64,000 bases of DNA, from IMG/VR virus record IMGVR_UViG_3300035670_000035, positions 72,132 through 136,131 of that record; one strand, given 5' to 3'. Positions 39,931 through 60,648 of the stretch are shown here, one piece after another (within the stretch, counting starts at the first letter, position 1; every line of letters starts with the position of its first letter). The DNA is from a virus. A program made the position numbers and the translations under genes. Under the pieces are notes generated by a model that was not told the DNA's origin, searched no databases, and saw only the letters and a program-made list of their open reading frames with translations.

Positions 39931-42900
39931 TTACGCTGTTAAATTCAAATTTTGAGGTGGATTAACAACGCCCTTTTCCCTTGCTTTAGCCTTTTCATCC
40001 GCAATTTTAACAATTGCTTCACCGAATTTTTTAACTTCTGCTTCAATCATTTTTTGTAGTTCTGCTTTATCCATTGCAGCTTCTTGCGCTATATTAATGT
40101 TTGGAGATACAGAGATGGTATTATTTATTTCAAATGGTTTTTCTTTTTCTGTTGCTTTAGCTTTTTCTGTTGCTGTTTCTTCTGATTTGGCAAGCATTTC
40201 TGCTTTAGAAAACTCTTCTGGTCTTGAAGTATTTTCAAATTGTTGGGCAAATTGCTGTTGAGATTCTTTTAATGTTGCTAACGCTACTTCAAGCCCTTTT
40301 GCTTGAGAAGCTTGCTCTTCTTCGGTAAGAGCACTAGCTCCACCTCCGCCTAAAAATCCAGGTAAATTTTGAGATAATGATGTAAATAAATCTGGCATTG
40401 TATCGTAAAGTTTATCACCTAAAACGCTTGCTACATTTTCTCCTTTATCTCCAACTGGAACTTGACTAATTCCATAACCAACAGCTGCTCCACCAGCAAA
40501 TGCACCAGCACCTAAAGCAGTTGTTCCTGCAACTCCTCCAGGTAATGCTAATGCCCCTCTTACTCCTATATTCATTCCATTTGCTGCAGCTGCTGTATTT
40601 AATGCTCCTCTAGCAACTCCAAATCCTCTTCCTATACCTCCAACAACATTTTTTCCTAAATTAGCTGCGCCTCCAACAACATTTTTTCCTAAATTAGCTG
40701 CGCCTCCAACAACATTTTTTCCTAAATTAATTGCACCTTTTCCAGCTGCAGATACTCCTTTTGCACCAAGTATTCCACCGCCTACCGCCGCTATTGTGCT
40801 TCCAATTCCACCACCAGCAAGTAATGTATTTATTATGCTACTTGCATCCATACTTGGAGCAGGAGTAGGTTTTACTACATCTGGAGTAAAGTCAACCTTA
40901 GTTTCTTTAGGAACATCTTCGGCTCTTTTTCTCATAGCTTCTATCTCTGCGGCTTTTTCTTGGGCTTTCTTTTGATCTTCTGTGAGTTCAGGAGCTTTAG
41001 ATCCTAAGTCGTTTAACATAACTCTACCTTCTCCTACTTTCTCCTCTAATTCTTTCATTGTCTGTGTACCAGCATCACCAAAATCATAACCATTTTTTCC
41101 TCCTGCTAAAATATCCTGTGCAGGTTTAAATCCTAAAGCACCCGCTTGTTCCATCTGTTGTCTTTGTACATTAGCTATATATCTTGCTCCTCTTTCTTTA
41201 TATTCTTCTGGAGCTTCAAGTCCAGCTTGTCGTGCTAATAATACAGCTTGCCCAGCTAATCTATCTAGCTCTTCTTCTTTTCCTGGTCCTGCCCCCATAG
41301 TTTCAACCATTTTTATTCTTGACAATGCCGCGTTAAGCTTATCCATTGGTTGAGCTACAAATTCTTCATCAAAAATTCCTTCTCCTTGTACGCTACTTAT
41401 ACCTTTATAACCTGGAGCTTTAGGCTGTACTGCTGCTGCTTTCGCTCTTGCTTCGGCAGCTTTAAGCTCAGTTTGAGTTAATTTCATGGTTGCTGCTACC
41501 ATTTTTTGTGCTGCTTCTGGATTTTTAGCTAATTCACTTTTTAACTGAGCAATAGATTCTGTAGATGCACCTGCCATTACTGCTCCTGCTTCAAGCACAG
41601 CAAAAAATTCGGAAGCAGAACCTGATGATTGAGATAAAGCGTCTGCAACAGTTAGAAAATCATCTGGATTAAGAGAGAGAATCGGTGCCATAACAGATTT
41701 GGCAGCGGAATCAATTGATTCTTTGCTTTGAAATGTTGTTTTCATTTCTTTATTCATTAAACCTTGGCCATAATCTACTAATGGTCCTATTCCTGTACCA
41801 GTTAAAATTCTACCAAATTGACCCATAGCACCCATATCAGCTCTAGCTTTTCCTTGTTCGGCTGTAACTGTTTGTCTTAAAGCAATTTGGCTCTGGGCTA
41901 CTGATTGTTTACGTTGCTCCTCTGAGATAGAGCCCATTACTCCTTCTGGAGTACTTAAATTTTTCATTATTTTATCTCGTAGTTCTGGGCCTAAATCAGC
42001 TATGCCATCTAAAATGCTTGTTCTAAATTTTGCAATAGCTTCTGGATCTGGTTCTGCTTTCTCTAATTCTTCTGCATAAGCATTTAATGTTGGATTTAAA
42101 TTAGATACTACAGTTTCTAATTTAGAAGTAGCAGCTCTTGAAGATTCCATAGCTTTATTTAAGCTATCCATCTGCTTGGTAAGAGGTTTATCTGCATTTG
42201 CAGAAAGTCCAGCTACACCTTGAATTGCTAACATTGTTCCTGCCGCAGCAATTCCTTTTTTACCACCACCAAAAGTACCAATAGCTGTACTAACAGAACT
42301 TAGTGCAGTTAAACTTTGATTTAACCCTTGAATTACTTTACTATTTGTATCCCCAAATTGAAGTATTGTTCCTTGTAATACAGATATGCCAAGACCAAGT
42401 GCTATTAATTTGCTTTGATTATCGTTTACTTTCTTGGATAAATTTTTACTAGAATCAGCAGTTTTACTTAATCCTCTAGCGGCTTCATCTGCTGCTTTTG
42501 CTACGGCAGTAAAATCTCCAGATTTACCTGTACCTACTGACATTTTTCCACCTGGATTTCTAAATGGTATTCCTTTTGGCATAGGGGCAAAATTTGGTAT
42601 AACTCCACTATAACGATTTACTCCTTGCTGTAATCCAGCTGGTTCATCTCGCGTATTATAAACTCCAAGACCAAGAGGGTTATCTCTAGACATTAAACTA
42701 GAGCTAGTACCAACTCGAATTAAATTAGGATTAACGCCAGCAGCTTGCTCGCGAGCAATAGCGTCTTGTAATGCGGCAAAATTTGGAATATAACCAAAAG
42801 ATTTAGTTCTTCTTGCGGAGCTTATCTTTTGTGCTTTTCCTAGCTGTATTCCTTTTTCTGCAGCTTTTCTAGCGGCAAGTTCTTTCTCTTTTAATTGTCT

Positions 42901-45360
42901 CTGTTTTAGTTCTTTTGTATAATTTTCACCTAACATTTCCTTTGTTTTTTGACCTATATACCCTAAATTTAATATTTTTTGAGCTACACTATCTCTTTGG
43001 TCTCCTTTTGCATTTACTTTAGCTTCAAATGTAGCAGCTCTATCCGCCCCCATATTAAATAATTTTCTTAATTCAGGACTTGGAGCAGCAAAATCTATTG
43101 GAGCATTTTGACCTCTTCCTTCATTTAGAGTGCTAGTTGCAAGTCCAACAGCTGTTTCAAATACTGCTCCAGCAATACTACCAAATGATCCAGCATTAGA
43201 TAGTTGATTAATACTTGCGATCTTTGGTATTTGTCCACCACCTTGAAATAATTTTTTAGCAAAATCATTTGTAAATGTTACAATTTTATCTCCAAGTTGT
43301 TTTATCAAATCTATGTCTGCTGGTTTCCTTATGTTCGCTGGGTTATATCCAGACATTGGAAATCCTATTTTAATTTTATAATCTCCATATTTAGCATAAC
43401 CAAAAGCATCTACAGCTTTATTAGTTTTATATGGAAAAATCATTCCAACTTTATTTTGTCTTCCAGTATCAATAATCTTTGTATATTTTTTTCTTTCTTT
43501 ATCTACAAAATTAGGAACATATCCACGATAAGCATAAGGATCAAATCCTACTTGTTTTCTAAATGCGCTTCTATAATTTTCTCCAGCAAGACTATTTTGT
43601 GGTGGCATAATAGCTGGACCATCTGCACCAGCAAATTGTACAACACTCTCTGCTGTATTATAATACATTCCTCCTATCTTTTTGACTGCACCAGGAGTAT
43701 AACCTCCAGCGTATGCACCCATTTTTTCTTGCATAGTTGGCGATACAAAATTTGGTATATAACCACCAGCTTTTGTTTTTACTGTTGGAGTGGCTATTCT
43801 TGCTGCGGCTGGAGCAACTCTAGCTGAAATTGTAGCGCCTATAGCTCTTGCCGTATTTTGCTGCTCAATAATCCTTAGTATTTGATTTTCTATTTGTAAT
43901 AGTGAAGACTCTTTAGAAATAATAGCTTGTATAAGCGAAGGATTTTGTGCTAAGATTGCATTTACTCTTGCTTGTGCTGATGCAATTTTATCAGCTTGAC
44001 TACTAATTCCAATTAAACTTTTTAACGCTTCTGCACTAAATTTAGTTAATCCACCAAATATCTTAATAAATGCTGCACCAACCACAGCAAGTCCTGGACC
44101 ACTTAAATAACCACCTATTCCTTTTAAAATACCTGTGGCAATTTTTGTTCCTGTACCTTGAAGCTCTTCTGGTTTATTGAATTCTTCTAAAATAGAATTT
44201 AATCCACCAAGACCAATTTTTAAACTTGGAGCAATAGTTAATTCGCCAATTCTTGCAGCAGCTTCTTGTAAGTTAACAAAAGTTTTATTCGTTAATGCTG
44301 AAAGAGTTTGATTTAAAGCTTGATTTCTTTGAATTGCTTGATCTGCGGCAGTTCTAGATGCATTTAAAGCTCCACTATAGACACTATATTCTTTACTTAA
44401 ATCTGATAGTGCTGCTCTTAAAATATTGATCTGGAAAACACCGCCAACAGTTTCTGCAACAGAAGCTCTTTGAGAATCACTTAATTGATAAAATACATCT
44501 GATAAATTTTTTAGAATTTGTATAGCTGGTAAAGTGTTACCTTGTAAATCTCTAACTGCAATTCCTACGGCTTCTAATTCATCTAACGTATCTGTTCGTT
44601 GTAAACGTGTAAAAATCGTCTTAAATGAGTTACCAATTACTGCTCCACCTCTAGCGGTTGTTTGTTGGGCGGCTGTAACAATAGCTATTAATTGATCAAA
44701 ATCAACTCCTACGTCTTGAGCTGTACTACCAACTCGACTAATAGCCTCTGCAAGATCCGCTGTGCTTACAGCAAAAGCCGCGTCAACTGTTGCAAGTTTA
44801 TTAATAATCTGACTAGAGGTTAATCCTGCTCTTGCAAATGAGTTTACTGCCGCAGTTAATGTTTCTACGCTTCTTGCTGCATCTAGACCAGAAAGACGAC
44901 TTAATATAAGTGCGTCATTTGTTCTTTTTAATGTTTCTTCAATACCAAGACCTTGACGAGCAAATTCAGTTGCAGCTTTTGCTACTTGATCAAATCCTTG
45001 ACCAGTATTTTTTGCTATACCAAATAATTCTTTACCAAATTTGCCAAGGTCTTTTGTTGAAGCATTTAAAACAACATTAATATCTGTAAGGCTTTTTTCT
45101 ACTTCTAATGTGGCCTTTACTACTTCCCCAAATGCTCTTTGTATTGCGTAAACTGCTCCAGCAGATGCTCCGAATGCTAAAACACGAGCATTAGATGCTT
45201 CTAATGATTTTTCAAATTCAGATACTTTACCAGTAATTCTTCCTAAAGGCTGAGATAAGCTATCCTTTAGATTTAAATTAACGCTTCTAGACGATATTTT
45301 ATTTAACTTAGACTCTAACGGTCTCAGATCTCCATCTACCGATAAAATAATATCGCTCAT
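39931..45360 (-). CDS. Tail tape measure protein with internal cargo domain
   Basis: TMP core (SLTDINVVL, VAKAATEFARQG, ISRVGSTAQDVGVDFDQL, GNSFKTIFTRL), Ala/Gly-rich helices, 11-aa repeats, four G[YV][IV]PNF motifs. Confidence 0.92.
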   Translation of the reverse strand: MSDIILSVDGDLRPLESKLNKISSRSVNLNLKDSLSQPLGRITGKVSEFEKSLEASNARVLAFGASAGAVYAIQRAFGEVVKATLEVEKSLTDINVVLNASTKDLGKFGKELFGIAKNTGQGFDQVAKAATEFARQGLGIEETLKRTNDALILSRLSGLDAARSVETLTAAVNSFARAGLTSSQIINKLATVDAAFAVSTADLAEAISRVGSTAQDVGVDFDQLIAIVTAAQQTTARGGAVIGNSFKTIFTRLQRTDTLDELEAVGIAVRDLQGNTLPAIQILKNLSDVFYQLSDSQRASVAETVGGVFQINILRAALSDLSKEYSVYSGALNASRTAADQAIQRNQALNQTLSALTNKTFVNLQEAAARIGELTIAPSLKIGLGGLNSILEEFNKPEELQGTGTKIATGILKGIGGYLSGPGLAVVGAAFIKIFGGLTKFSAEALKSLIGISSQADKIASAQARVNAILAQNPSLIQAIISKESSLLQIENQILRIIEQQNTARAIGATISARVAPAAARIATPTVKTKAGGYIPNFVSPTMQEKMGAYAGGYTPGAVKKIGGMYYNTAESVVQFAGADGPAIMPPQNSLAGENYRSAFRKQVGFDPYAYRGYVPNFVDKERKKYTKIIDTGRQNKVGMIFPYKTNKAVDAFGYAKYGDYKIKIGFPMSGYNPANIRKPADIDLIKQLGDKIVTFTNDFAKKLFQGGGQIPKIASINQLSNAGSFGSIAGAVFETAVGLATSTLNEGRGQNAPIDFAAPSPELRKLFNMGADRAATFEAKVNAKGDQRDSVAQKILNLGYIGQKTKEMLGENYTKELKQRQLKEKELAARKAAEKGIQLGKAQKISSARRTKSFGYIPNFAALQDAIAREQAAGVNPNLIRVGTSSSLMSRDNPLGLGVYNTRDEPAGLQQGVNRYSGVIPNFAPMPKGIPFRNPGGKMSVGTGKSGDFTAVAKAADEAARGLSKTADSSKNLSKKVNDNQSKLIALGLGISVLQGTILQFGDTNSKVIQGLNQSLTALSSVSTAIGTFGGGKKGIAAAGTMLAIQGVAGLSANADKPLTKQMDSLNKAMESSRAATSKLETVVSNLNPTLNAYAEELEKAEPDPEAIAKFRTSILDGIADLGPELRDKIMKNLSTPEGVMGSISEEQRKQSVAQSQIALRQTVTAEQGKARADMGAMGQFGRILTGTGIGPLVDYGQGLMNKEMKTTFQSKESIDSAAKSVMAPILSLNPDDFLTVADALSQSSGSASEFFAVLEAGAVMAGASTESIAQLKSELAKNPEAAQKMVAATMKLTQTELKAAEARAKAAAVQPKAPGYKGISSVQGEGIFDEEFVAQPMDKLNAALSRIKMVETMGAGPGKEEELDRLAGQAVLLARQAGLEAPEEYKERGARYIANVQRQQMEQAGALGFKPAQDILAGGKNGYDFGDAGTQTMKELEEKVGEGRVMLNDLGSKAPELTEDQKKAQEKAAEIEAMRKRAEDVPKETKVDFTPDVVKPTPAPSMDASSIINTLLAGGGIGSTIAAVGGGILGAKGVSAAGKGAINLGKNVVGGAANLGKNVVGGAANLGKNVVGGIGRGFGVARGALNTAAAANGMNIGVRGALALPGGVAGTTALGAGAFAGGAAVGYGISQVPVGDKGENVASVLGDKLYDTMPDLFTSLSQNLPGFLGGGGASALTEEEQASQAKGLEVALATLKESQQQFAQQFENTSRPEEFSKAEMLAKSEETATEKAKATEKEKPFEINNTISVSPNINIAQEAAMDKAELQKMIEAEVKKFGEAIVKIADEKAKAREKGVVNPPQNLNLTA
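40637..40729 (-). repeat. 33-nt exact tandem repeat (about 2.8 copies) in the TMP
   Basis: cctccaacaacattttttcctaaattagctgcg repeated; encodes NLGKNVVGGAA. Confidence 0.95.
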
Positions 45361-45400: not shown

Positions 45401-46387
45401 TTAAATTTTTGATAATTTTGCTAAATCTGCTATATTTAGAGTGCCTCCTTTAGACTTTGCTATTTCATTAACATCATTTTTAACGTCTTGTTTTAAATAT
45501 TCCATGTCTTCTTTATTTGCGCCCATAACAAAATTCATACCTTTGCCACTAGAATTAGGATTTTTACTTTTAAAATTAACAAAAGCGTTATACCATTCTA
45601 TTAATTTATCTGGATTTCTTTTTGTTTCTAAATCTAATTTTTTAGCTTCTTGCATACCTAAAACTGTATGAAAAAATTTACCATAACTATATATACTTGT
45701 TTGATAATAACTCAAATTATAAATTGCTTGATTAAATAAGTGATAACAATTTCCATCTGCTGCATTTATCATATTTTGAAAAAATTCAGACAGTGATAAT
45801 TGTTTGATATTATTGATATTAAATTTTTCCATTACTTTATTGTGCAATATTATATATTTATAGTATAAATTTTCATCAATATCATAATTTTCAATATCTA
45901 ATAATTTAAACTTAAGTTCTTTATCTTTATAAAATGAATTTAAAATATAAATAAAATCAACTTTACTTTGAGCATAAGATTCAGCATATATGCCCATAAG
46001 ATCTTTCTTGTCGTTCAAAAGGGTTTTGACTTCTTTTTTTAAATTAACTATTTCTTTTTTTGATTTATCTATATGGGATTTTAAAAATAAATTACTATGT
46101 GATTTCTCTAATTTTTGAAGTTTTTCTTTTTTATATTTTAATTCCTTTTCCTGCTCTTCTGTCCAGTAATTTTCAGAGATTAATAGCTTTTCTTTTTCTT
46201 CATAATTTGGCAAACCATTCTTTTTTGCTTTATCATAATATTCAAAAAAATGCTCTTCAAATTCACCAGAGCTAAATTCTCCGTAATGTTTTATGTAAAT
46301 ATATTCATTTTTATCTAAGACTTTAGAATAACGATTACAAATTTCAAAAAATAATAATTTTAATTTGCGCTCTGTAAGATTTGTCAA
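45401..46387 (-). CDS. Putative tail assembly chaperone (pre-TMP)
   Basis: Directly upstream of the TMP, coiled-coil; TTG start overlapping the upstream TGA. Confidence 0.55.
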   Translation of the reverse strand: MTNLTERKLKLLFFEICNRYSKVLDKNEYIYIKHYGEFSSGEFEEHFFEYYDKAKKNGLPNYEEKEKLLISENYWTEEQEKELKYKKEKLQKLEKSHSNLFLKSHIDKSKKEIVNLKKEVKTLLNDKKDLMGIYAESYAQSKVDFIYILNSFYKDKELKFKLLDIENYDIDENLYYKYIILHNKVMEKFNINNIKQLSLSEFFQNMINAADGNCYHLFNQAIYNLSYYQTSIYSYGKFFHTVLGMQEAKKLDLETKRNPDKLIEWYNAFVNFKSKNPNSSGKGMNFVMGANKEDMEYLKQDVKNDVNEIAKSKGGTLNIADLAKLSKI

Positions 46388-47145
46388 TCTTGATTACCTT
46401 GCTCTTTAATATAATTTTCTATTATTTTAAAATCTTCTTGTTTGGTAGCTTTTCCAGCATACCAAAAACTTACAAAGTACGCAAATCTTGTTAATATTTT
46501 CTTTAAGAATGCATCATCGCCTTCTTCAATTTCATCATACTTTTTAAGTCTTTGTTCATAAGTTCCTTCTCCAAACAAAGGAACGTAATCTTCTCCACTC
46601 TTTTTATATGACATAAAAAGAATCCACCACATCATTGTTTTATTCTTTGCTCTATTCTCTGCTGTTTGCTCAAAAATATTATTCTTAGCATTTTCTAATT
46701 CAACTAATTCTAATCTTAGAGCATTAATTTGATTTTCTAATTCAATTTTCTCTTTATTCTCTTCCTCGGTAAGTTTTTCTTTTTTCTCCTCTTTTTCAAC
46801 ATAAACTTGATATTTAATTTGAATATTTGTAATTTCTTCTAAAAGGATCTTAATTTTCTCTACTTCTCCATCAGTAAAAATACCACCATCTTTGTCGTAT
46901 TTTTTAACCATTAGAGTTCTTGTCAACATGCCAGCTTTAATTCCTTCTGCTAATTTTACTCCATAAAAAAGTTCAGCATCATCAAGCATTGCTCTTGTTG
47001 GTTTTTTAAGTGCAAATTCGACTGGTTTTTCTTCTTTGACTTTTTTAATAGTCTTTACTAGTTCGTTGTTATCGTTAGTTGATTCTTCGATTTTTTCTAC
47101 TTCTTTAACTTCAGATTCTGTAAACGTATATAAATACTTGCTCAT
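46384..47145 (-). CDS. Putative tail assembly chaperone
   Basis: Between tube and TMP; acidic coiled-coil; LKKPTR motif; FEQTAENRA. Confidence 0.6.
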   Translation of the reverse strand: MSKYLYTFTESEVKEVEKIEESTNDNNELVKTIKKVKEEKPVEFALKKPTRAMLDDAELFYGVKLAEGIKAGMLTRTLMVKKYDKDGGIFTDGEVEKIKILLEEITNIQIKYQVYVEKEEKKEKLTEEENKEKIELENQINALRLELVELENAKNNIFEQTAENRAKNKTMMWWILFMSYKKSGEDYVPLFGEGTYEQRLKKYDEIEEGDDAFLKKILTRFAYFVSFWYAGKATKQEDFKIIENYIKEQGNQD

Positions 47146-47402
47146 TGTTTTTCTCCTATTTTTTCATCAAAAAAATATTTAACTTTTTTAAAATTAAGTT
47201 TACCAGCTATAGTTTTGACAAAATCTTCTTTTCTTTTTTCATCCCAATTTCTATACATAGAAATAAATTTATCGCTAACTAACGTCTCTAGCTTTGGACT
47301 ATATATCTTATATTCCTGAGATAAGCTTCTTTGAACTGTCTGTAAATTCAAATTAGCTTCAATTATAGACTGGGCGGGAAAATTAAATATTCTCTTTCTC
47401 AT
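47142..47402 (-). CDS. Small hypothetical protein
   Basis: ATGA-type overlaps at both ends. Confidence 0.6.
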   Translation of the reverse strand: MRKRIFNFPAQSIIEANLNLQTVQRSLSQEYKIYSPKLETLVSDKFISMYRNWDEKRKEDFVKTIAGKLNFKKVKYFFDEKIGEKQ

Positions 47403-47614
47403 AGATTTATCTTGAATTGCTTAAGATCTTCTTCAAGCTCTCTAATAGTATCATTACCATAATCTAGCACTCTTTTACGAAGCTGATTGTATTTCTCTTG
47501 AGAGATGGAAGGATTATCTTTTGATAAATCTTCTAGAATAATAAAGAAGTTTTTGAATAAGTTAGTTACTTTTCTACGTATCTGAAATGATAGATAATCT
47601 CTTTCCTTTGACAT
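47399..47614 (-). CDS. Small hypothetical protein
   Basis: 71 aa, helical, own promoter and AAAGGT-TAAAGGT leader. Confidence 0.65.
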   Translation of the reverse strand: MSKERDYLSFQIRRKVTNLFKNFFIILEDLSKDNPSISQEKYNQLRKRVLDYGNDTIRELEEDLKQFKINL

Positions 47615-47684: not shown

Positions 47685-48503
47685 TTAGGCGCCAATTAAT
47701 ATATGATCTTGACTTTTAACACCAGCCTCTAGAGCTATAGAAGCTATTTGAATATCATCCAAAGAAGTATTAGAAGTAAAGTTAGATAGTTTTGCGCCAG
47801 TAACTCCAAAAGATATAGTTCCCATTGAAATAACTACGTTTTGTGGATCATTTGTTCCAAATTTTGGATCTGCATTATTTCTTAAAATAACTTCTGCTTC
47901 TACTGTAACTTTTGGAGGTCCGTTCAAAATAGTCGCAATTGAATCGATTTGTCCAAGTTTATTTATGGTTTGGCGTGGAATATCAAGAGCATAAGAGAAT
48001 GATCTACATTCATACTCTGTACCATTAAATGTAATTTGAATTTGATCTGGTCTAGCAACATTTATTGCATCTATTGTCCCAACTTGGGATGAAGAAGGCT
48101 CTCCAGCTGTATAAATTGCATCTACGGCTTGTATACTTACGCTAGCGATTGGTATATTTCCAACTGATCCTTCAACTGAATAAGAAGTAACAATTCCACT
48201 TTTTATATCAAGTGATCCAGCGCCACTAATTTTAAAATCACGTCCAGCTACATCTGCTAAGGTATTTTCTAAATTATTTAAACCAATTTTTACATGATTA
48301 TCGCTACCAGTAGCTATAGCATAGCTATAATTTAAAGTTACAGTTGGCGGTTCTACTTGAATATTATCTACCGCAAATACATTACCAAATTCAAAAATAT
48401 CCTGACGACTAATACTGAAATCTACGTCTGCGCTTTGAACAAGATTAATTTCTTCTCCTGTTACTAGTAATTTTTGTGCTGGATAGTGTGTTACATTTCC
48501 CAT
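47685..48503 (-). CDS. Major tail (tube) protein
   Basis: Position after the terminator gene, strong AGGAG SD, VQSADVDFSISRQDIFEFG..PPTVTLNYSY, internally duplicated. Confidence 0.75.
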   Translation of the reverse strand: MGNVTHYPAQKLLVTGEEINLVQSADVDFSISRQDIFEFGNVFAVDNIQVEPPTVTLNYSYAIATGSDNHVKIGLNNLENTLADVAGRDFKISGAGSLDIKSGIVTSYSVEGSVGNIPIASVSIQAVDAIYTAGEPSSSQVGTIDAINVARPDQIQITFNGTEYECRSFSYALDIPRQTINKLGQIDSIATILNGPPKVTVEAEVILRNNADPKFGTNDPQNVVISMGTISFGVTGAKLSNFTSNTSLDDIQIASIALEAGVKSQDHILIGA

Positions 48504-51109: not shown

Positions 51110-51787
51110 TTATCTATTATTTCTGGTGCATTTTAGTATTTTTATAGAATCTCTAAATTCAAATTTTACTATAGGATTATGACTATAGGTTATATCAAAT
51201 CCACTATTCATTAGTTTATCTGTTATTTCATCGATATTTCCAAAATAATTATGAACTTCTATAGCCATTTGCTTAAACTTTCTTAAAGTTTCTATAGGCG
51301 CACTTTTTATAATCTCAAATTCTGCCCCTTCTGCGTCTAACTTTAGACATCCGTCTTCAATGCTATGTTGATTAACAATGGTTTCTAGGCTAATTTTATT
51401 TAATTTTTTATCTGGATTTTCAGCATAGTATACTTTTGTTTCTGCTCGATTTTCAAAATCTGGATCACAGTTGAAAAACCCATCCTCATTTGAAACTGCC
51501 ATTCGGTAACTTTTTATATTATTACATCCATTCAATCGTGCGTTAGATAAAATAAACGATTCGCTCTTAAATGGTTCATATGCAAATACTTCTGATGCTC
51601 CCATTCTTGAATAATATATAGCGGTTTCTCCATAAAAAGCGCCAATATCAACAACTTTAGCTCCTTTTACGTCCATCTCGTATATTCCACCCATTATTTC
51701 ATAAAATACATCATTTAGATATACTTTATTTGGATAATAATCTAAACAATCAATCTTAATATCTAGTATCTGATTCTCTATCCTCAT
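51110..51787 (-). CDS. FkbM-family SAM-dependent methyltransferase
   Basis: VVDIGAFYGETAIYY, AYEP, LKLDAEGAE, IEVH. Confidence 0.9.
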   Translation of the reverse strand: MRIENQILDIKIDCLDYYPNKVYLNDVFYEIMGGIYEMDVKGAKVVDIGAFYGETAIYYSRMGASEVFAYEPFKSESFILSNARLNGCNNIKSYRMAVSNEDGFFNCDPDFENRAETKVYYAENPDKKLNKISLETIVNQHSIEDGCLKLDAEGAEFEIIKSAPIETLRKFKQMAIEVHNYFGNIDEITDKLMNSGFDITYSHNPIVKFEFRDSIKILKCTRNNR

Positions 51788-53321: not shown

Positions 53322-53328
53322 TTACACT
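53322..53328 (-). promoter_or_regulatory. Putative late promoter
   Basis: AGTGTAA 10 nt upstream of ATG 53311. Confidence 0.6.
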
Positions 53329-54029
53329 TATGTTAATTGAAATCTTCCTTTTAAAGATTTAAAATTTGTTAAAATTTCTTGTGGATTTAATGCCCTGTTG
53401 TATATCTTTAAACTAGATACATATGTATCAGATTTTCTACCTCCTCCAACGCTATTGTAAGATATAGTAGAAGATGGCGCCACAAATGTTCCAACGTTTT
53501 GATTATCATAAATGCCATTTATATAAGATATACCTTTAGTTCCATCATATGTTACAACATAATTAATTGGCGTATTAAGGATAACAGAATAATTCGTTAT
53601 AAGATTTAATGTACCACCACTTTGAGTAGAGAAGAATCCAAGTTTGTTAGTACTTTGCTGCATCCCAGCTCTAAAACCATTAGTTAAATAGCTTTCACAT
53701 GAAAGAAAAAAATCAAAAAAATTGTCTCCGTATCTTGTAAAAGAAAACCATATGCTAATTGTAAAATTAGTAGAAAGATTTAATGAACTCCAAGTTGGTA
53801 AACTAGCAGTTTTACCAATGCTTGTACTGCCTGCTTGTCCTTCAAAATATATTCTTCCTAAATATTTATTATCGCCAATTGTACCTGCTGTTAATGTCGC
53901 AGTTTGATTTAAATTTACTAAATTTCTCCATGTTGTGGTGCTAAAATTTGAATAGCTTCTTTTATCAGCAGCATTAAGATCTAATACAAGCCCATCTGTA
54001 ATTAAATCTGGGCCACCAGCGCAACTCAT
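53328..54029 (-). CDS. LamG/concanavalin A-like lectin protein
   Basis: TDGLVLDLNA, FTISIWF, YVVTYDG..SYING, LKIYNRALNPQEI. Confidence 0.85.
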   Translation of the reverse strand: MSCAGGPDLITDGLVLDLNAADKRSYSNFSTTTWRNLVNLNQTATLTAGTIGDNKYLGRIYFEGQAGSTSIGKTASLPTWSSLNLSTNFTISIWFSFTRYGDNFFDFFLSCESYLTNGFRAGMQQSTNKLGFFSTQSGGTLNLITNYSVILNTPINYVVTYDGTKGISYINGIYDNQNVGTFVAPSSTISYNSVGGGRKSDTYVSSLKIYNRALNPQEILTNFKSLKGRFQLT

Positions 54030-54715
54030 AAACTAAACCTCCCCTTTAATGCATTGTAATTCTGCAAAACTTCAGAAGCTGATAAATTTCTGTTATAAAC
54101 TCTAATAATAGCCATAGAACCGTTATAATAATATCCAGCTAGATTGGGTGTTCCTCCATTATATGCACCAATAGTCATGCCATTATTATTTGTACTAATT
54201 GTACCAGCTTGGGTATCAGAAGTAATTAATTGTCCGTTCAAATATAATCTTCTATTTCCTGAGATAAATGTTCCAACAACTTGATGCCATCCATTTATAA
54301 TTAAATTTGAAGTACTAATTAATGCAGCAGTAAGACTACCACCAGTAAAACGTTGTCTCCAAGTAATATTTGCTCCTTCTAAGAATAAACTGTATTGTGT
54401 ATTAACAGCGCCTTTTTCAAAAAAGAAACCATTTTGATTTAATATACTTGTTCTAAACCAAACTTCTACGGATGGAGTTTGAGTATTTAATAAAGTATTA
54501 TTTGGTATTGTTCCGCCTTGAGTACTACCATTAAAAGAGAAATTACCAAAATTACTTGTTGAAAAAGTAGGAGAATTAATTAAAGTTACATTATTATCAT
54601 TTTGAGACAGATCTTGCCAAATTGTTCCACTACCAACATAACTTTTTCTATTACCAGCATCTAAACATAATACAAGACCATCTGTAACTATTCTTGGAGA
54701 ATGATGAAGGCTCAT
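54026..54715 (-). CDS. LamG/concanavalin A-like lectin protein
   Basis: TDGLVLCLDAG, WQDLS, SVEVWF, WHQVVGT..LYLNG, IRVYNRNLSASEV. Confidence 0.9.
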   Translation of the reverse strand: MSLHHSPRIVTDGLVLCLDAGNRKSYVGSGTIWQDLSQNDNNVTLINSPTFSTSNFGNFSFNGSTQGGTIPNNTLLNTQTPSVEVWFRTSILNQNGFFFEKGAVNTQYSLFLEGANITWRQRFTGGSLTAALISTSNLIINGWHQVVGTFISGNRRLYLNGQLITSDTQAGTISTNNNGMTIGAYNGGTPNLAGYYYNGSMAIIRVYNRNLSASEVLQNYNALKGRFSL

Positions 54716-54716
54716 T

Positions 54717-55445
54717 TTAGTATATTTTCCATTTGTTATTAAGATAATTTTGTATTTTTAGAATATTAGTTAAAGATGGAATTGGAGAATATACAATAAT
54801 TTCGCCAAGAAAACCTTTTAGAAAATAAGTTGCACTATTTTGAAAAATATTTGTATTTTGAAATACATTCGAAACTGTAGAATAAAATGAAGTTGAATTT
54901 ATTTTTGATTCCCAAAAACTAGATCTAGACTCGACGCTATACATAGTTAAATTTGTTAGATTTTGCGATGGATTACTTGTCGTTTTTCTTGTGTTAGTAA
55001 ATGTTGCATCATAAATTGTTCCATCTGTCCAAGGTATATGAGAATTTAAACTAGAAATTGTTCCTAATGGATGTCCAGCGAGAATATTTGCTGTAGGAGG
55101 ATCATTGTCTATTTTAAAAATACATATTGCAAATGCAGAAGTTGCAGCTGAGGTATTTATAGCGCTAAAATATTGAGTTCCATCCATTCTTATAAGACTT
55201 AATCTATTTTGTCCATTTAATTTTAAAGTAGGTCTTACGCCAGCAGTTGATTGAAGAGCGTGTCTACTGTTTCCACTTTTATCTTCCCATCTGCCAATAG
55301 CTGTTCCGTCTGCAATAATTCTATTTCCTCCAGTATTATTATCAAACAAAGTAGTTGAGTCATTTGCATCTAACCATAAACTTAATCCACTAATAGTTTT
55401 TGGAAATATGCTTTTTTCTGGCGTAGTTCCATATACTGTTGCCAT
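54717..55445 (-). CDS. LamG-like lectin protein
   Basis: LSLWLDAND, WEDKSGNSRHALQ..RPT, GFLGEIIVY..IQNYLNNKW. Confidence 0.8.
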   Translation of the reverse strand: MATVYGTTPEKSIFPKTISGLSLWLDANDSTTLFDNNTGGNRIIADGTAIGRWEDKSGNSRHALQSTAGVRPTLKLNGQNRLSLIRMDGTQYFSAINTSAATSAFAICIFKIDNDPPTANILAGHPLGTISSLNSHIPWTDGTIYDATFTNTRKTTSNPSQNLTNLTMYSVESRSSFWESKINSTSFYSTVSNVFQNTNIFQNSATYFLKGFLGEIIVYSPIPSLTNILKIQNYLNNKWKIY

Positions 55446-55446
55446 A

Positions 55447-58400
55447 TTAAAACTCCACAGTTAATTTTGGTATATCTTTTCGTTCTGCTGTGAAACTCCA
55501 ATAAAATTCATATTCATTTTTATCAAACCAGCCGCGATTAGTTCCTACAACAAAGTTATTTTCTTTTACATTAACTTCTTTTACGAATAATATCTTGTCG
55601 TGATTAATGTTTGTGAGTTGAACATTTACTTTGTCTTCGTTTACTAAGGCAGAAATATAATCTGGTAAGTTTACTTTAACTGAATCGGCGCTAATTTTAT
55701 TTTTATCTGTTAATCTAATTCCATGATAAGGAGACTCTAAGCTTCCGTATTGGAGTTTTTTGCCAATTATTGTTGGATGATCTATTAAGAATGATTTAGA
55801 AGCTGCAGAAAGATGACCAGTAATTGTTGTGTTGCCACTTACTGTTAGATCACCTTGTAATGTGCTATTTCCGCTAACATAAAATCTACTTGGCACAGAA
55901 GATATCCCACTACCAATACCAAAATTGCCATTTGAATCTAATAAAACTCTGTTAACGCTTGCACCACCACCTCGAAATATAATACTTCGTGTTCCGCCTC
56001 CGCCGTAAGATAAGGTTAAATTTTGATCACCATCATTATAAAGAGTTATGGTGCTTAAATAATTTGTTCTTAAAATTCCAGCATTTCCATTTAGAGTAGG
56101 TTCAAAATATACTGAATTGAAATTATTAGGAGATTTTAATATAAATGAATTTCCAAGACCAGAAACAATTAATCCTGTAGTATTTATATCTCCAGTTATA
56201 TTAACATTACCACTAATAATATGGTTTCCTATGAAAGTTTTGACTCCTGAGATAATCTGATCGCCCGTTGTATATACGATAGTAGTTGGTAGTGGAGCTA
56301 CTTCGCCACTAAGAAGAACGCCTGTACCATTAACTGTTGGACGACTAATAAATGCTTTAATACCACTTATTGTTTCATTTCCAGTTTTATGAACAACTTC
56401 GCTGTCCATTGCAAGAAAATCATTTTTACCTGTTGGTAATTTTAAAAATGAACTATTTGAAATTAAGGTATTACCATTACTGCTAAATTGTATAGTTATA
56501 TTTGAAGAATCTGCAGTGTTTATTAATTGCATCTCACTATCACTCCAATATATCGTGTTGTATGCATCATTTGGACCATCATACATATATAGTGTTGCAC
56601 TAGCGCTTCCGGGTGAACCAAATTTAATATCTCCATTTACTTCTAAATTTGCATTTTCAATTTTGCATAATGCACTTGCTTGATCAAAAGATAAATAAGC
56701 ATCATTATACGCCGCATCAACATCTCCCATTTTTATCAATAAATCTGTTCCAATTTCTCCTTGAACAAAAAATCCATTTTCTCCATTTTTGTCTCTTAGA
56801 TTTAAAATTTTAGATATTCCATCTATTCCTCTAATGCTAATAGCTGATTGTTCGTGCCCTTGTCCACCAATATAAAAAGAACCAGAAAGCGTTTTATTTC
56901 CAGTAATATCTTGATCCCCATAAAGCAGAACCGCTGAACCGCTTAAATCATTAATTTTTGTGTCCAAAGTACTACCAGTTGATGCAAGATTATTAATCGT
57001 AGCATATGAACTTAAATCAACTCCAGTTAATACTGGGTTGCCGCTAAGTAAAATATTTCCAGTTACATTAAGATCACCTAATATATTAGTATTATCAAAA
57101 ATATTAAATACGCCAGAAGCATTAATACTAATATTTCGACCAGTTAAAAATACATCTCGTAAAATTCCACTTTGAGATTGTTGAGCTCCGATGATTAGAT
57201 TATTATTCTGCCAACCAAATAATCCAAACTCGCCAGAGTTAGTGCCAGTTGCGTTATAAACTCTGAATTGTTGAGCGTTAGTTCCATTTTTTTGAGCAAG
57301 AATATGATCTGCATCGTATCCCAAAAATAAAACTGTGCCTACGCCAAAATTCCAAGCTAATCCTCCTCCAGCTAATCGAGATTCAAAAGACCCACCAGCG
57401 CGGATATAAGCTCTTGTTGTTCCAAAAGAATTAAATTCAAAATCCGCACCATTAGAAGCAATCCCAAATGCGCCATTAAGTCTGGCAATTTGATCATTTG
57501 TTGTAATCCTACCGTTTCGATCAACTCTAATATTTGCTCCAGAAATTAATACATTATTACCAGTTAATAAAATGTCGCGAGATATACCAGAGTTCGTTGC
57601 CTGCGAACCTATAACTAATTGGTTATTTTGCCAACCAAATAAACCGAACTCGCCAGAGTTTGTACCAGTTATATTAAATATTCTAAAAGATTGAGGATTA
57701 GTTCCTCTAACTTGACCAATAATATCTGTCCCTTGTGAATATAAAGCGTGTCCTTCACTAAATGTCATTCCTCCATTACTTCTTGTGAATACTATTCCCG
57801 GAGCAGGAGCAACATTCCTTGTAATTCGTAAAGCTTCAAGTCCAGCGCTATAGCAAGAAATTCCTCCTCCAGCTACATCACCAAAAGAAAATCCATCATC
57901 ACTTCCAAAAACTACATCTCTTGCAAAAATTGCACCATCTTTTCTTATGCGTAGCCTTGATGTATCATTAGTTCTAAAATTTATAAAATTAGTCGTACTA
58001 TTGCTATTTGTATCTGTAATATTTAGATCAATCCCAGTATAAACTTGAGAAGAATTATTCCAAGTTCCAGTAATATACAATGCTGGATTTGTTCCTGTTG
58101 GTTGAACGTTTATTGCTATTCCAGAGTTAAATGTTTTGGTTCCATTTATTAGTTGATTGCCAGTAGTAAATACTATATTACTGTTTGAAGAATTAACATA
58201 CCCACTAAGATTATCAATTTTAGTATTTAATGTTGAACCAGTGCTAGTTAGATTTGTTACTGTCGCGTATGTTGAGCCAAGGTTATCGATTTGGGTTTGT
58301 AACGTAGATCCAGTTAGACCAAGATTCGTAATAGTTGCGTAAGTAGATGTTAACGTACCGCTTAACGAACCGATCTTGCTATCTAACGTTGATCCTGTCG

Positions 58401-60648
58401 AAGCAAGATTCGTAACTGTAGCGTAGGTATTGCCAAGGTTATCGATTTGGGTTTGTAACGTAGATCCAGTTAGACCAAGATTCGTAATAGTTGCGTAAGT
58501 AGATGTTAACGTACCGCTTAACGAACCGATCTTGCTATCTAATGTGCTACCAGTCGAGGCAAGATTTGTTACAGTAGCATAAGTATTACCAAGGTTATCT
58601 ATTTGATTTTGTAGAGTCGAACCAGTACTAGCTAGATTTATTATAGTAGCATATTTTCCATCAACAAAACCACTATAAGCAGTAATATCTTGAACAGCAG
58701 CAATATCATTTAATGTTGAAAGATCTGATCCTCTGCTAGATATACCAAATTTAAATTTATCAGTATGATCAAAACCAATAATTGGGCCAAGATCATTTAT
58801 TCCAGTAAGTCCAACACCAGTTACAAAGAAAATACCACCATCAGTTGCACCACCAGTAAGATTAAGAAGAATATATGGACTTTCAATAAAATTATTAGTA
58901 ACATTTGCAATAAATTCTTCGCCAGTAACATAAAGATCATGGATATAAACTTTATCTCGGAAAGTCTTTGTGCCATCTATTGTTTGATCTCCGTATAACA
59001 AGACTGAACTACCGCTGAGTGAATTTATATAGTTTTGTAATGTTGTTCCAGTGCTTGCAAGATTAACAATAGTAGCATAATCAGAAGTTAATGTTCCACT
59101 TAGTGAACTTATTTTATTCTCTAATGTAGAGCCAGTTAAAGCTAAATTTGTTACTGTTGCATATGTCGTGCCAAGATTATTAATCTGAGTCTGTAGTGTA
59201 TTTCCAGTAGAAGCTAGGGCTATGTCAGTAGCATAAGTAAGATCTAAATTATCAATTTGATTTTGTAAAGTGGCACCAGTTAAAGATAAATTAGTTGCTA
59301 ATGTTGATCCTGTAGAAGCAAGATTAATAATTGTAGCGTAATTAGATGTTAGTGTATTACTTAATGCAGTTATAGAATTAAATAAAGTTATTCCAGTGTT
59401 TTGTAATTCAGTATCTGTGGCGTAAGTATCATCAAGATTGTTAATTTGATTTTGTAGACTAGAACCTGTGCTTGCTAAATTAAGAATTGTAGCATAGTTT
59501 GAAGTTAATGTTCCGCTCAAACTATTTATATTATTAATAAGAGATGAGCCTGTATTTTGTAATTGAATATCTGTTGCATAAGTCAAATCTATATTATCAA
59601 CAAAATTTTGATAAGTCCCGCTAAATGTATTAATTTTTTGATCTAAAGTTTGACCTGTTAAACTTAGATTTACATCTATGGCATAAGTATTATCAAGATT
59701 ATTTATTTGATTTTGTAAAGTTGATCCTGTGTTTTCTAGATTTACTATAGTTGCATAAATTGAACTAGCAGTAGAAGAAGTAAGATAAGAACTAAGGTCA
59801 ACTCCAGTTATAAAACCGCTAGGATTAGATTTAAGATAATAGTTATTTGTTAGAGTATCACTTAAAGAGCTTATACTTTGATTAAGTGTAGATCCAGTAT
59901 TTTGTAATTGATTATCTGTTGCATATGTTATATCAAGATTATCAACGAAATTTTGATAAGTACCACTAAAGTTGTCTATTTTAGTATTTAAATTACTGCC
60001 TGTATTTGAAAGATTTGTAATTGTTGCGTAAGTATTAGAAGCAAATGAAGTAGTAAGATAATTTCCAGTAAGAGTACCACTAAGTGAATTTATTTTATTA
60101 TCAAGATTTACGCCAGTAGAAATCAAATTAGATGAAACTGAATTTATACTAACTTGAAGAGACGAACCAGTAGAAGCTAAGTTATTAGAAATTGATAAGT
60201 CTTGAGAATTTACATAACCACTTAGATTATCTATTTTTGTATTTAATGTTGAGCCAGTATTTTGTAATTGAGTATCAGTAGCATATGTTGTGTCAAGATT
60301 ATTTACAAAAGATTGATATGTGCCGCTAAAGGTATCTATTTTAGTATTTAAATTTGCGCCAGTTGAATTTAAATTAGTTGTTAATGAATTTACTGCTGAT
60401 TGAAAATATCCACTATTACCAGAAATAAAAATTGTACTATCTCCACTAGTATAAACTATATTGCCATCTGCGCCAGTTATTGCTATATTTTCTGCTGTTA
60501 AATTATTGACGCTTGTTGGATTACCTTTTTCTCCTCTTGGTCCTTGTGGTCCAGGAATTGAAACATTAGTTGCCAAAGCTTGCGTTGGCGATGTTACATC
60601 AACGCTTAAGGCACTTGGCAAACTAACATCTACAGTAATATCTGCCAT
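55447..60648 (-). CDS. Long tail fibre with coiled-coil repeats and C-terminal chaperone-like domain
   Basis: Short collagen motif GPQGPRGEKG; many YAT..NL.STGSTL repeats; GDQ.I.G.KTF and RPTVNGTGVLL motifs; AASKSFLIDHP..LQYGSLESP C-terminal domain. Confidence 0.85.
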   Translation of the reverse strand: MADITVDVSLPSALSVDVTSPTQALATNVSIPGPQGPRGEKGNPTSVNNLTAENIAITGADGNIVYTSGDSTIFISGNSGYFQSAVNSLTTNLNSTGANLNTKIDTFSGTYQSFVNNLDTTYATDTQLQNTGSTLNTKIDNLSGYVNSQDLSISNNLASTGSSLQVSINSVSSNLISTGVNLDNKINSLSGTLTGNYLTTSFASNTYATITNLSNTGSNLNTKIDNFSGTYQNFVDNLDITYATDNQLQNTGSTLNQSISSLSDTLTNNYYLKSNPSGFITGVDLSSYLTSSTASSIYATIVNLENTGSTLQNQINNLDNTYAIDVNLSLTGQTLDQKINTFSGTYQNFVDNIDLTYATDIQLQNTGSSLINNINSLSGTLTSNYATILNLASTGSSLQNQINNLDDTYATDTELQNTGITLFNSITALSNTLTSNYATIINLASTGSTLATNLSLTGATLQNQIDNLDLTYATDIALASTGNTLQTQINNLGTTYATVTNLALTGSTLENKISSLSGTLTSDYATIVNLASTGTTLQNYINSLSGSSVLLYGDQTIDGTKTFRDKVYIHDLYVTGEEFIANVTNNFIESPYILLNLTGGATDGGIFFVTGVGLTGINDLGPIIGFDHTDKFKFGISSRGSDLSTLNDIAAVQDITAYSGFVDGKYATIINLASTGSTLQNQIDNLGNTYATVTNLASTGSTLDSKIGSLSGTLTSTYATITNLGLTGSTLQTQIDNLGNTYATVTNLASTGSTLDSKIGSLSGTLTSTYATITNLGLTGSTLQTQIDNLGSTYATVTNLTSTGSTLNTKIDNLSGYVNSSNSNIVFTTGNQLINGTKTFNSGIAINVQPTGTNPALYITGTWNNSSQVYTGIDLNITDTNSNSTTNFINFRTNDTSRLRIRKDGAIFARDVVFGSDDGFSFGDVAGGGISCYSAGLEALRITRNVAPAPGIVFTRSNGGMTFSEGHALYSQGTDIIGQVRGTNPQSFRIFNITGTNSGEFGLFGWQNNQLVIGSQATNSGISRDILLTGNNVLISGANIRVDRNGRITTNDQIARLNGAFGIASNGADFEFNSFGTTRAYIRAGGSFESRLAGGGLAWNFGVGTVLFLGYDADHILAQKNGTNAQQFRVYNATGTNSGEFGLFGWQNNNLIIGAQQSQSGILRDVFLTGRNISINASGVFNIFDNTNILGDLNVTGNILLSGNPVLTGVDLSSYATINNLASTGSTLDTKINDLSGSAVLLYGDQDITGNKTLSGSFYIGGQGHEQSAISIRGIDGISKILNLRDKNGENGFFVQGEIGTDLLIKMGDVDAAYNDAYLSFDQASALCKIENANLEVNGDIKFGSPGSASATLYMYDGPNDAYNTIYWSDSEMQLINTADSSNITIQFSSNGNTLISNSSFLKLPTGKNDFLAMDSEVVHKTGNETISGIKAFISRPTVNGTGVLLSGEVAPLPTTIVYTTGDQIISGVKTFIGNHIISGNVNITGDINTTGLIVSGLGNSFILKSPNNFNSVYFEPTLNGNAGILRTNYLSTITLYNDGDQNLTLSYGGGGTRSIIFRGGGASVNRVLLDSNGNFGIGSGISSVPSRFYVSGNSTLQGDLTVSGNTTITGHLSAASKSFLIDHPTIIGKKLQYGSLESPYHGIRLTDKNKISADSVKVNLPDYISALVNEDKVNVQLTNINHDKILFVKEVNVKENNFVVGTNRGWFDKNEYEFYWSFTAERKDIPKLTVEF
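58276..58542 (-). repeat. 156-nt-period tandem duplication in the fibre (two identical 111-nt copies)
   Basis: 58276-58386 is identical to 58432-58542; 52-aa unit. Confidence 0.95.

Follow-up and report, generated by a model that had tools for sequence, protein, structure and literature searches.

The window, a stretch of 64,000 nucleotides spanning positions 72,132 to 136,131 of the virus record IMGVR_UViG_3300035670_000035, encodes a tape measure protein (TMP) whose central part appears to be organized as a rack of small domains. Three predicted domains, here called M1, A and M2, are bordered by copies of a short junction peptide, G[YV][IV]PNF, and the middle domain has been swapped between otherwise very similar TMPs. 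We put a probability of roughly 0.6 on the reading that this TMP is a module rack, in which domains fenced by the peptide, among them an exchangeable A with nuclease-like residues, are delivered in the phage tail. Four observations underlie it: the architecture itself, the prediction of the domains as independently folding units, a set of invariant residues, and the swapping of A alleles at the junction peptides between near-identical TMPs. From N- to C-terminus the rack would consist of a conserved N-terminal region, the M1, A and M2 domains, hydrophobic segments and a long, fast-evolving C-terminal ruler; a flexible junction peptide of ~9 residues would fence each domain, with selection acting on the peptide.

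The sequence-only reading of this DNA had proposed four G[YV][IV]PNF motifs around a cargo marked by the strings GAVFETAV, PIDF and FEAK. All of these were confirmed on the minus-strand open reading frame (ORF). The principal features are as follows (aa, amino acids; pLDDT, predicted local distance difference test score).

39931..45360, minus strand: TMP gene (P0001), 1809 aa, the longest ORF of the region
43747..43767, minus strand: junction peptide 1, GGYIPNF, aa 532-538
43525..43746, minus strand: module M1, aa 539-612, a predicted small alpha/beta domain with GMYYNTAE (model residues 13-88, pLDDT 73-90)
43507..43524, minus strand: junction peptide 2, GYVPNF, aa 613-618, the upstream mosaic boundary of the A cassette
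42796..43506, minus strand: module A, aa 619-855, a basic globular cassette with a confident predicted fold at ~aa 625-845
42778..42795, minus strand: junction peptide 3, GYIPNF, aa 856-861, the downstream mosaic boundary of the A cassette
42607..42777, minus strand: module M2, aa 862-918, a predicted small domain with GVYNTRDE (model residues 335-387, pLDDT 77-88)
42589..42606, minus strand: junction peptide 4, GVIPNF, aa 919-924, the border to the divergent C-terminal part

Judging by profile matches, the product of 39931-45360 is a TP901-type TMP of a large uncultured aquatic phage. PF10145 (PhageMin_Tail) matches aa 116-307 with an E value of 2.4e-28 (99.8 bits, compared to a Pfam gathering cut-off of 33.2), and the PHROG tape-measure families match with a best E value of 8e-54. 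The gene sits in the tail gene block of a 136-kb IMG/VR virus contig of ~29% G+C, and its product contains four hydrophobic segments (aa 414-442, 984-1003, 1036-1054 and 1508-1531).

An AlphaFold2 model of aa 527-930 (404 residues), computed from a 38-sequence alignment, has a mean pLDDT of 80; prediction of aa 520-940 from the single sequence gave 38. The former shows M1 (74 aa), A (237 aa) and M2 (57 aa) as separate, confidently predicted domains. The only model stretches with a pLDDT below 50 (residues 1-12, 89-98, 320-334 and 388-404) are exactly the four motifs, which suggests that the motifs are flexible, exposed junction peptides between folded domains. M1 is modeled as one helix, four short strands and two helices, and M2 as one helix and a hairpin. 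The middle segment of ~237 aa had been described as globular and unlike the helical TMP, and the model agrees, with a predicted folded domain at model residues 99-319 (pLDDT ~90) that consists of a four-stranded N-terminal meander followed by helices.

Relatives were collected by searching aa 520-940 against 1.84 billion representative proteins (E ≤1e-3). The 953 metagenomic matches to the M1-A-M2 zone share M1, M2 and the motif; counts given below over 151 proteins refer to the best 150 of these matches plus the TMP of the window. The consensus of the junction, from 656 copies in the 151 TMPs, is [AS]-x-G-[FLYH]-[IV]-P-N-[FY]-[AS]; invariance of G, P and N among these copies is built into the search pattern, and [IV] is found in 97%. 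All four motifs are retained in six related viral contigs. Translation of the 136-kb genome in six frames (open frames of at least 60 aa) yields 25 PN[FY] tripeptides, only four of which carry a G-x-[IVLM] prefix, all in the TMP. These numbers bear on one alternative, namely that the segment is simply a helical repeat of the TMP, with motifs that arose by chance or from low complexity. Periodic aromatic residues are indeed frequent in TMPs. However, the zone is predicted as three globular alpha/beta domains, and four PNF tripeptides, each preceded by G-x-[IV], are present where 0.11 would be expected from the composition of the protein. With the 656 copies in relatives, the motif excess and the predicted globular domains refute an ordinary ruler repeat, to which we assign a virtually negligible probability.

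The clearest evidence that the motifs delimit a unit comes from pairs of related TMPs. P0071 and P0078 are 100% identical in their N-terminus (541 aa), 97% in M1 and 100% in M2, but only 32% identical in A and 47% in the C-terminus. In their alignment, the Asn-Phe of motif 2 is where identity ends; it sets in again with the Gly of motif 3 and is lost a second time just past motif 4. The TMP of the window and P0153 show the same breakpoints, with identities of 88% (N-terminus), 99% (M1), 44% (A), 96% (M2) and 44% (C-terminus). The comparison with P0002 is reversed, as A (85%) is more alike than its flanks (N-terminus 81%, M1 70%, M2 67%, C-terminus 38%). Within the clade of the window, identity runs at 92-99% as far as motif 2, drops to ~44% over A, is back at 93-96% from motif 3 and drops once more past motif 4. 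In this clade, M1 is 89-99% and M2 89-96% identical; among clade members with 89-99% identical M1 and M2, the A alleles fall into at least three classes with ~85-88%, 58-60% and 43-46% identity to that of the window. This discordance between A and its flanks indicates that A is exchanged as a unit, as is everything past motif 4. The idea that the PNF motifs are recombination boundaries is thus borne out by segment identities and alignments, including those of the window's own clade: the boundaries of exchange fall exactly on the motifs. Recombination presumably uses the conserved coding sequence of M1 and M2. The final 400 aa ahead of motif 1 are 85-88% identical to those of clade relatives. 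The C-terminal 700 aa past motif 4 are ~40-49% identical to every close relative, compared to 85-88% for the N-terminal part, and motif 4 thus looks like the border of a second exchanged unit made up of the whole distal half of the ruler.

As had been predicted from the window, motifs and end modules recur in the relatives, whereas the kind of cargo segments and their number differ. Nearly all of the 150 matches considered have TMP length (~1,000 to 5,354 aa), and the small number below that are apparently fragments (checked for P0070). M1-type sequence is usually located at ~residues 540-640. Copies of [IVLMF]PN[FY] range from 0 to 23 per protein, with four copies in 77 of the 151. The 565 inter-motif segments, mostly shorter than 300 aa (90th percentile, 297 aa), cluster into an M2 type (214 segments in 144 of 151 proteins), an M1 type (113 in 98 of 151), A-type cargo and 106 further clusters, including 71 singletons. 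The commonest order is M1-A-M2 (60/151), and in TMPs with multiple cassettes M1 usually comes first and M2 mostly last. For eleven other cassette families of at least three members, hhalign shows no relation to A (probability <1%). M1 and M2 would be the constant end pieces of a module rack, whose slot appears to hold up to ~20 cassettes of unrelated families in relatives. The TMP of the window holds one cassette and two end modules; relatives hold many unrelated cassettes.

The zone seems confined to uncultured aquatic phages. Matches of the TMP to deposited phages (tblastn) are restricted to ~aa 4-470 and come from SPbeta-like and other large Bacillus, Staphylococcus and Enterocloster phages; the M1-A-M2 zone and the junction peptide are absent from the deposited phage genomes (50,697 records), and thus there is no cultured model yet. 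In prokaryote genome collections, the zone was found only in aquatic metagenome bins (Flavobacteriales, Proteobacteria and Neomarinimicrobiota).

M1 and M2 had been taken for two short, related linker modules. Both modules are present, but the model shows confident folded domains rather than linkers, and their relationship did not hold. Aligned with hhalign, M1 and M2 match with a probability of 96.6% when the PNF flanks are kept and of 0.2% when these are masked, in which case only a 10-residue G..YN[ST]..E match is left; we therefore consider homology between them unsupported. Mean pairwise identity over 49 canonical TMPs is 54% for M1, 57% for M2, 51% for the N-terminal part (400 aa before motif 1), 19% for A and 17% for the C-terminal part. 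M1 and M2 are as conserved as the N-terminal domain and form the most conserved part of the module zone. Neither has a family match in Pfam or NCBIfam, and no standalone homologue of M2 was found, the ESM Atlas included. A metagenomic protein of 483 aa (P0021) consists of three tandem M2-type modules with degenerate junctions (IPNL, IPHF, LPHF and VSNF) and no cargo between them. Inteins are recognized by Hint splicing halves that are all-beta, by Cys/Ser at the N-terminus and by a C-terminal His-Asn that precedes Cys/Ser/Thr. An intein with a homing endonuclease was rejected as an explanation of the zone: M1 and M2 contain helices, the Asn of the motif is always preceded by Pro and followed by F/Y, and no Hint/intein profile matches.

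An iterated search from aa 619-855 found the A family, with one copy each, in 82 of the 151 TMPs. It is the commonest cassette type among the relatives and was found only inside TMPs. All members are strongly basic, with an isoelectric point (pI) of 9.9 for A of the window and 8.9-10.5 across the family. A few positions are nearly or fully fixed in the 83-row alignment of the family, at a mean identity of ~19%.

43156..43170, minus strand: G731-A-V-F734-E735 in GAVFETAV (aa 731-738, 43147-43170), on model helix 197-215; G in 83/83, F in 78/83 and E in 83/83
43093..43098, minus strand: I755-D756 in PIDF (aa 754-757, 43090-43101); D in 83/83, preceded by F/I/L in 80/83
43018..43026, minus strand: E779-A-K781 in FEAK (aa 778-781, 43018-43029); position 779 acidic in 83/83 (D in 47, E in 36), K in 83/83
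42976..42978, minus strand: K795, 14 residues past K781 on the next helix (model K269, helix 260-273); K in 82/83

In active sites of the PD-(D/E)xK type, a helix carries a Glu, an Asp follows a hydrophobic residue, a strand holds (D/E)-x-K and the next helix has a polar residue. The E, D and (D/E)xK residues of A, which had been proposed to follow this order, do so and are invariant; E779-A-K781 (model residues E253-A-K255) lies on a short strand (model residues 251-254). Neither a helical repeat nor a loss of the acidic and lysine residues among homologues, either of which had been named as evidence against a nuclease, was observed. In order and approximate spacing of these residues, and in its basic character, A resembles PD-(D/E)xK phosphodiesterases such as Hjc-type resolvases, the RecB/Cas4 nuclease domain and Cfr10I/Bse634I. 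As the conserved set comprises an acidic triad and lysines with no His or Cys, PD-(D/E)xK is the best single guess for A. We regard the assignment of A as a metal-dependent phosphodiesterase or nucleic-acid-handling domain of this kind as tentative, at somewhat less than even odds.

Several results weigh against a rack that carries a nuclease. Domain A has no family match in Pfam (to E 10), PHROGs, NCBIfam, PADLOC or PDB sequences. A cargo-only profile (A4) likewise found nothing, and NCBIfam and PADLOC gave at most chance-level matches; the PDB profile search with the whole-TMP alignment (A2) was dominated by coiled-coil matches. The Hjc Pfam profile matches nowhere in the genome. Fold searches gave no restriction-endonuclease match, with the 404-residue three-domain model as query, which weakens single-domain matches; rows of small GTPases in their output are not credible (TM ≤0.25, no P-loop). 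The core of the PD-(D/E)xK fold is alpha-beta-beta-beta-alpha-beta, with the Asp at the start of strand 2 and the (D/E)xK on strand 3. In the model of A there is no strand between the Glu helix and the Asp, and D756 (model D230) is located at a one-residue bridge, so that the model does not evidently contain the canonical alpha-beta-beta-beta core. A search for standalone homologues of A (91-461 aa) found none and the ESM Atlas gave no match; P0070 (166 aa) is a TMP fragment, not a free module. A Pfam scan of 14 multi-cassette relatives detected no known enzyme family, only PF10145, DUF7178, tape-measure profiles and a weak PGDYG match; the polymorphic TMP effector system proposed from the sequence alone is therefore hypothetical. 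Further, regions of TMPs can diversify merely to escape injection blockers, and the agreement among motif copies described below may have sources other than a shared function. The sequence-only assignment of the cargo to the restriction-endonuclease fold therefore failed to find support, with no fold or family match despite a model of pLDDT ~90. The PD-(D/E)xK superfamily is often undetectable by HMMER.

These negative results suit a different view of A: it could interact with the host or take part in injection, for instance by binding to variable envelope proteins or by escaping the injection blockers of prophages, and its charged residues would have a structural role or hold some ligand that is not a nucleic acid. 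Among lactococcal and streptococcal phages, blockers directed at TMPs are known. Such a role is in keeping with the extreme diversification of A, the swapping of alleles between near-identical phages and the restriction of the domain to TMPs, as well as with the absence of any nuclease fold or family match and of an evident canonical strand order. However, it does not readily account for the residues that stay fixed at 19% identity (G, F, E, D, (D/E)xK and K), which keep the order and spacing typical of PD-(D/E)xK and are all charged except for G and F. An acidic triad plus lysines is seldom retained on binding surfaces that are under diversifying selection, and the domain is uniformly very basic. 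We thus consider a non-nuclease role of A unlikely.

What the junction peptide does can be approached from the level at which it is conserved. Synonymous sites within the motif vary freely (ATA/ATT, CCA/CCT, GGT/GGA), which indicates that the constraint acts on the peptide and not on the DNA, and a DNA-level recombination signal was rejected on this ground. The residue after the Gly agrees among copies within one protein in 49% of pairs, compared to 29% in shuffles, although lineage inflates such statistics and the excess could partly reflect lineage or composition effects. This co-variation fits one common reader of the peptide per phage. In the searchable literature, no account of such a motif was found.

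One candidate for such a reader is a protease. The TMP would then be a polyprotein with proteolytic sites at the junction peptides, cut by a phage or host protease or by cyclization of the Asn, and M1, A and M2 would be freed in the tail lumen or in the host. Asparagine peptide lyases cut by cyclization of Asn, as in the tetravirus coat protein, where the site is Asn-Phe. The nearly invariant peptide recurs at every domain border, up to 23 times per protein, in linkers predicted to be disordered and accessible; its copies co-vary within a protein, as the specificity of one protease would give; and cassettes, mostly under 300 aa, have a size compatible with separate cargo in the lumen. Polyvalent phage proteins are, moreover, typically processed (PMC5512222). 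Against cleavage, no protease domain is recognizable in the TMP or its neighbors, no split genes or free-standing modules were found, and Asn-lyase sites normally lie in a structured catalytic environment that includes an acidic residue, whereas the motif is predicted to be disordered in the monomer. A TMP cut into pieces also fits the role of a ruler poorly, unless cleavage follows assembly. Since the motif occurs in no other protein of the 136-kb genome, it is probably not the site of a head-maturation protease, and this version of the proposal is weakened accordingly. On balance, processing at the peptide seems rather unlikely.

Alternatively, the peptide is never cut. It could bind one tail component (the tube lumen, an assembly chaperone or the M domains) or be a conserved hinge, and the inserts would be stowed beside the ruler and act while tethered to a membrane-inserted TMP. 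The same predicted disorder between folded domains, the co-variation of copies and the peptide-level constraint are also compatible with docking. In addition, hydrophobic segments flank the motif zone at aa 414-442 and 984-1054, so that it could loop out from a TMP inserted in the membrane, and the conserved end pieces M1 and M2 could bring the ends of the insert together. However, no partner was identified, most neighboring genes have no recognizable family, and a plain hinge would not need six nearly invariant residues. An uncut docking peptide or hinge is possible, though short of probable, and the two accounts of the junction peptide are nearly level.

With either reader, the module rack suggests a route for its cargo. 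Domain A would ride in the tail as part of the TMP and reach the host envelope or cytoplasm ahead of or together with the DNA, and it would diversify through meeting variable host or prophage factors. The junction peptide would be read by one common partner per phage, either a protease or a docking surface. Hydrophobic segments of TMPs have been proposed to insert into the host membrane, a view that is established although the evidence is indirect. If aa 414-442 and 984-1054 do so, the modules between them would be looped out to one side of the membrane, beside the DNA channel. In a bolder version, which we think improbable as a whole, the tail lumen would contain a cargo rack for which the junction peptide is an address or a cut code. 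The TMP would double as a polyprotein that at infection releases hypervariable effectors, or displays them at the DNA entry channel; effectors would be reshuffled by recombination at the code peptide, and the one present here would be a new nuclease family.

The remainder of the TMP frames the module zone.

43771..45360, minus strand: conserved N-terminal region, aa 1-530, with PF10145 and the GPGL segment, as defined by profile and identity data
44035-44121, minus strand: hydrophobic segment with a G-P-G-L core, aa 414-442
39931..42588, minus strand: C-terminal part, aa 925-1809, with hydrophobic segments, helical ruler sequence and a Gly-rich 11-aa triple repeat; ~45% identity to all clade relatives

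The Gly and Pro of the GPGL segment (aa 414-442) are invariant in ten giant relatives. As this segment precedes the first junction peptide by ~90 residues, the module zone has hydrophobic segments on both sides. The Gly-rich 11-residue unit LGKNVVGGAAN is repeated three times in tandem at 40636-40725 (minus strand, aa 1546-1575), directly past the hydrophobic segment at aa 1508-1531. A 176-aa frame with a TTG start at 43297-43827 on the plus strand runs antisense to the TMP over motif 1 and M1, and is most likely a chance frame in AT-rich DNA.

In profile searches, most genes around the TMP match no recognizable family; one neighbor has a weak match to phrog_290, a minor tail protein family. 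Upstream of the TMP, probable chaperone genes lie at 45401-47614 and a probable tube protein is encoded at 47685-48503. A 1733-aa protein encoded at 55447-60648 (minus strand) contains BppL_N, the lower baseplate protein's N-terminal domain in lactococcal phages, at aa 1414-1437 (E 3.6e-18), together with coiled-coil-like matches and a C-terminal domain common to PHROGs of unknown function. It is probably a long fiber or receptor-binding protein, located upstream of the tail genes and not downstream. Three adjacent genes at 53328-55445 (minus strand) encode proteins of 233, 229 and 242 aa. Each of the first two has matches to PHROGs 24074 and 8510 (virion structural protein), whereas the match of the third is to phrog_10356, a virion structural family. 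The genes seem to form a tandem structural set, in which the first two are probably paralogues. A gene for a SAM-dependent methyltransferase-like protein (51110-51787, minus strand; phrog_8156, E 1.3e-12) lies inside the structural gene block.

Few phage proteins meet the host envelope as early as TMPs do, and injection blockers are known to target them. A module rack common to ~1000 uncultured aquatic phages would mark a large untapped set of phage proteins that are delivered early, for which the junction peptide and the end modules would give a simple sequence signature. Such a rack might also offer a way of loading phage tails with foreign cargo. If A is truly a nuclease, it would represent a new restriction-endonuclease-like family confined to tail rulers.

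The TMP of the window shares an N-terminal PF10145, its length, hydrophobic segments and a position in the tail gene block with TMPs of the TP901-1/SPbeta type. Deposited members of that group match aa 4-470 only and lack both the M1-A-M2 zone and the junction peptide. Enzymes embedded in TMPs are known from mycobacteriophage TM4 (Mt3/Rpf-like motifs), T5 pb2 (peptidase) and SPbeta YomI (transglycosylase), and an annotation as YomI was seen among the tblastn matches. As in these proteins, the domain of the window would be a globular, probably enzymatic insert within a ruler that leaves the tail at infection. In contrast, the inserts of TM4, T5 pb2 and YomI are recognizable wall hydrolases, whereas A belongs to no known family, has a nuclease-like signature, is hypervariable and is swapped at the junction peptide. 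To our knowledge, those inserts are not fenced by a shared peptide.

A further parallel is with polyvalent proteins, in which many unrelated domains are joined in one virion-associated polypeptide believed to accompany the DNA into the host (Iyer, Burroughs, Anand, de Souza, Aravind 2017, PMC5512222). These carry known conflict domains and usually a zincin-like MPTase protease for processing, and TMPs are never mentioned in that account (PMC5512222). Their domain content varies between relatives, like that of the TMP cassettes described here. In this TMP, however, no conflict domains or MPTase were found, only PF10145, and the borders are marked by a junction peptide instead. Compared with domain-carrying TMPs and polyvalent proteins, the apparently new elements are the conserved junction peptide, end modules that stay constant, cassette swapping with borders exactly at the peptide, and a hypervariable domain with a nuclease-like signature that is found only in TMPs. 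If the TMP does act as a cargo rack, tailed phages would have in it an equivalent of polymorphic toxin and contractile-injection cargo systems.

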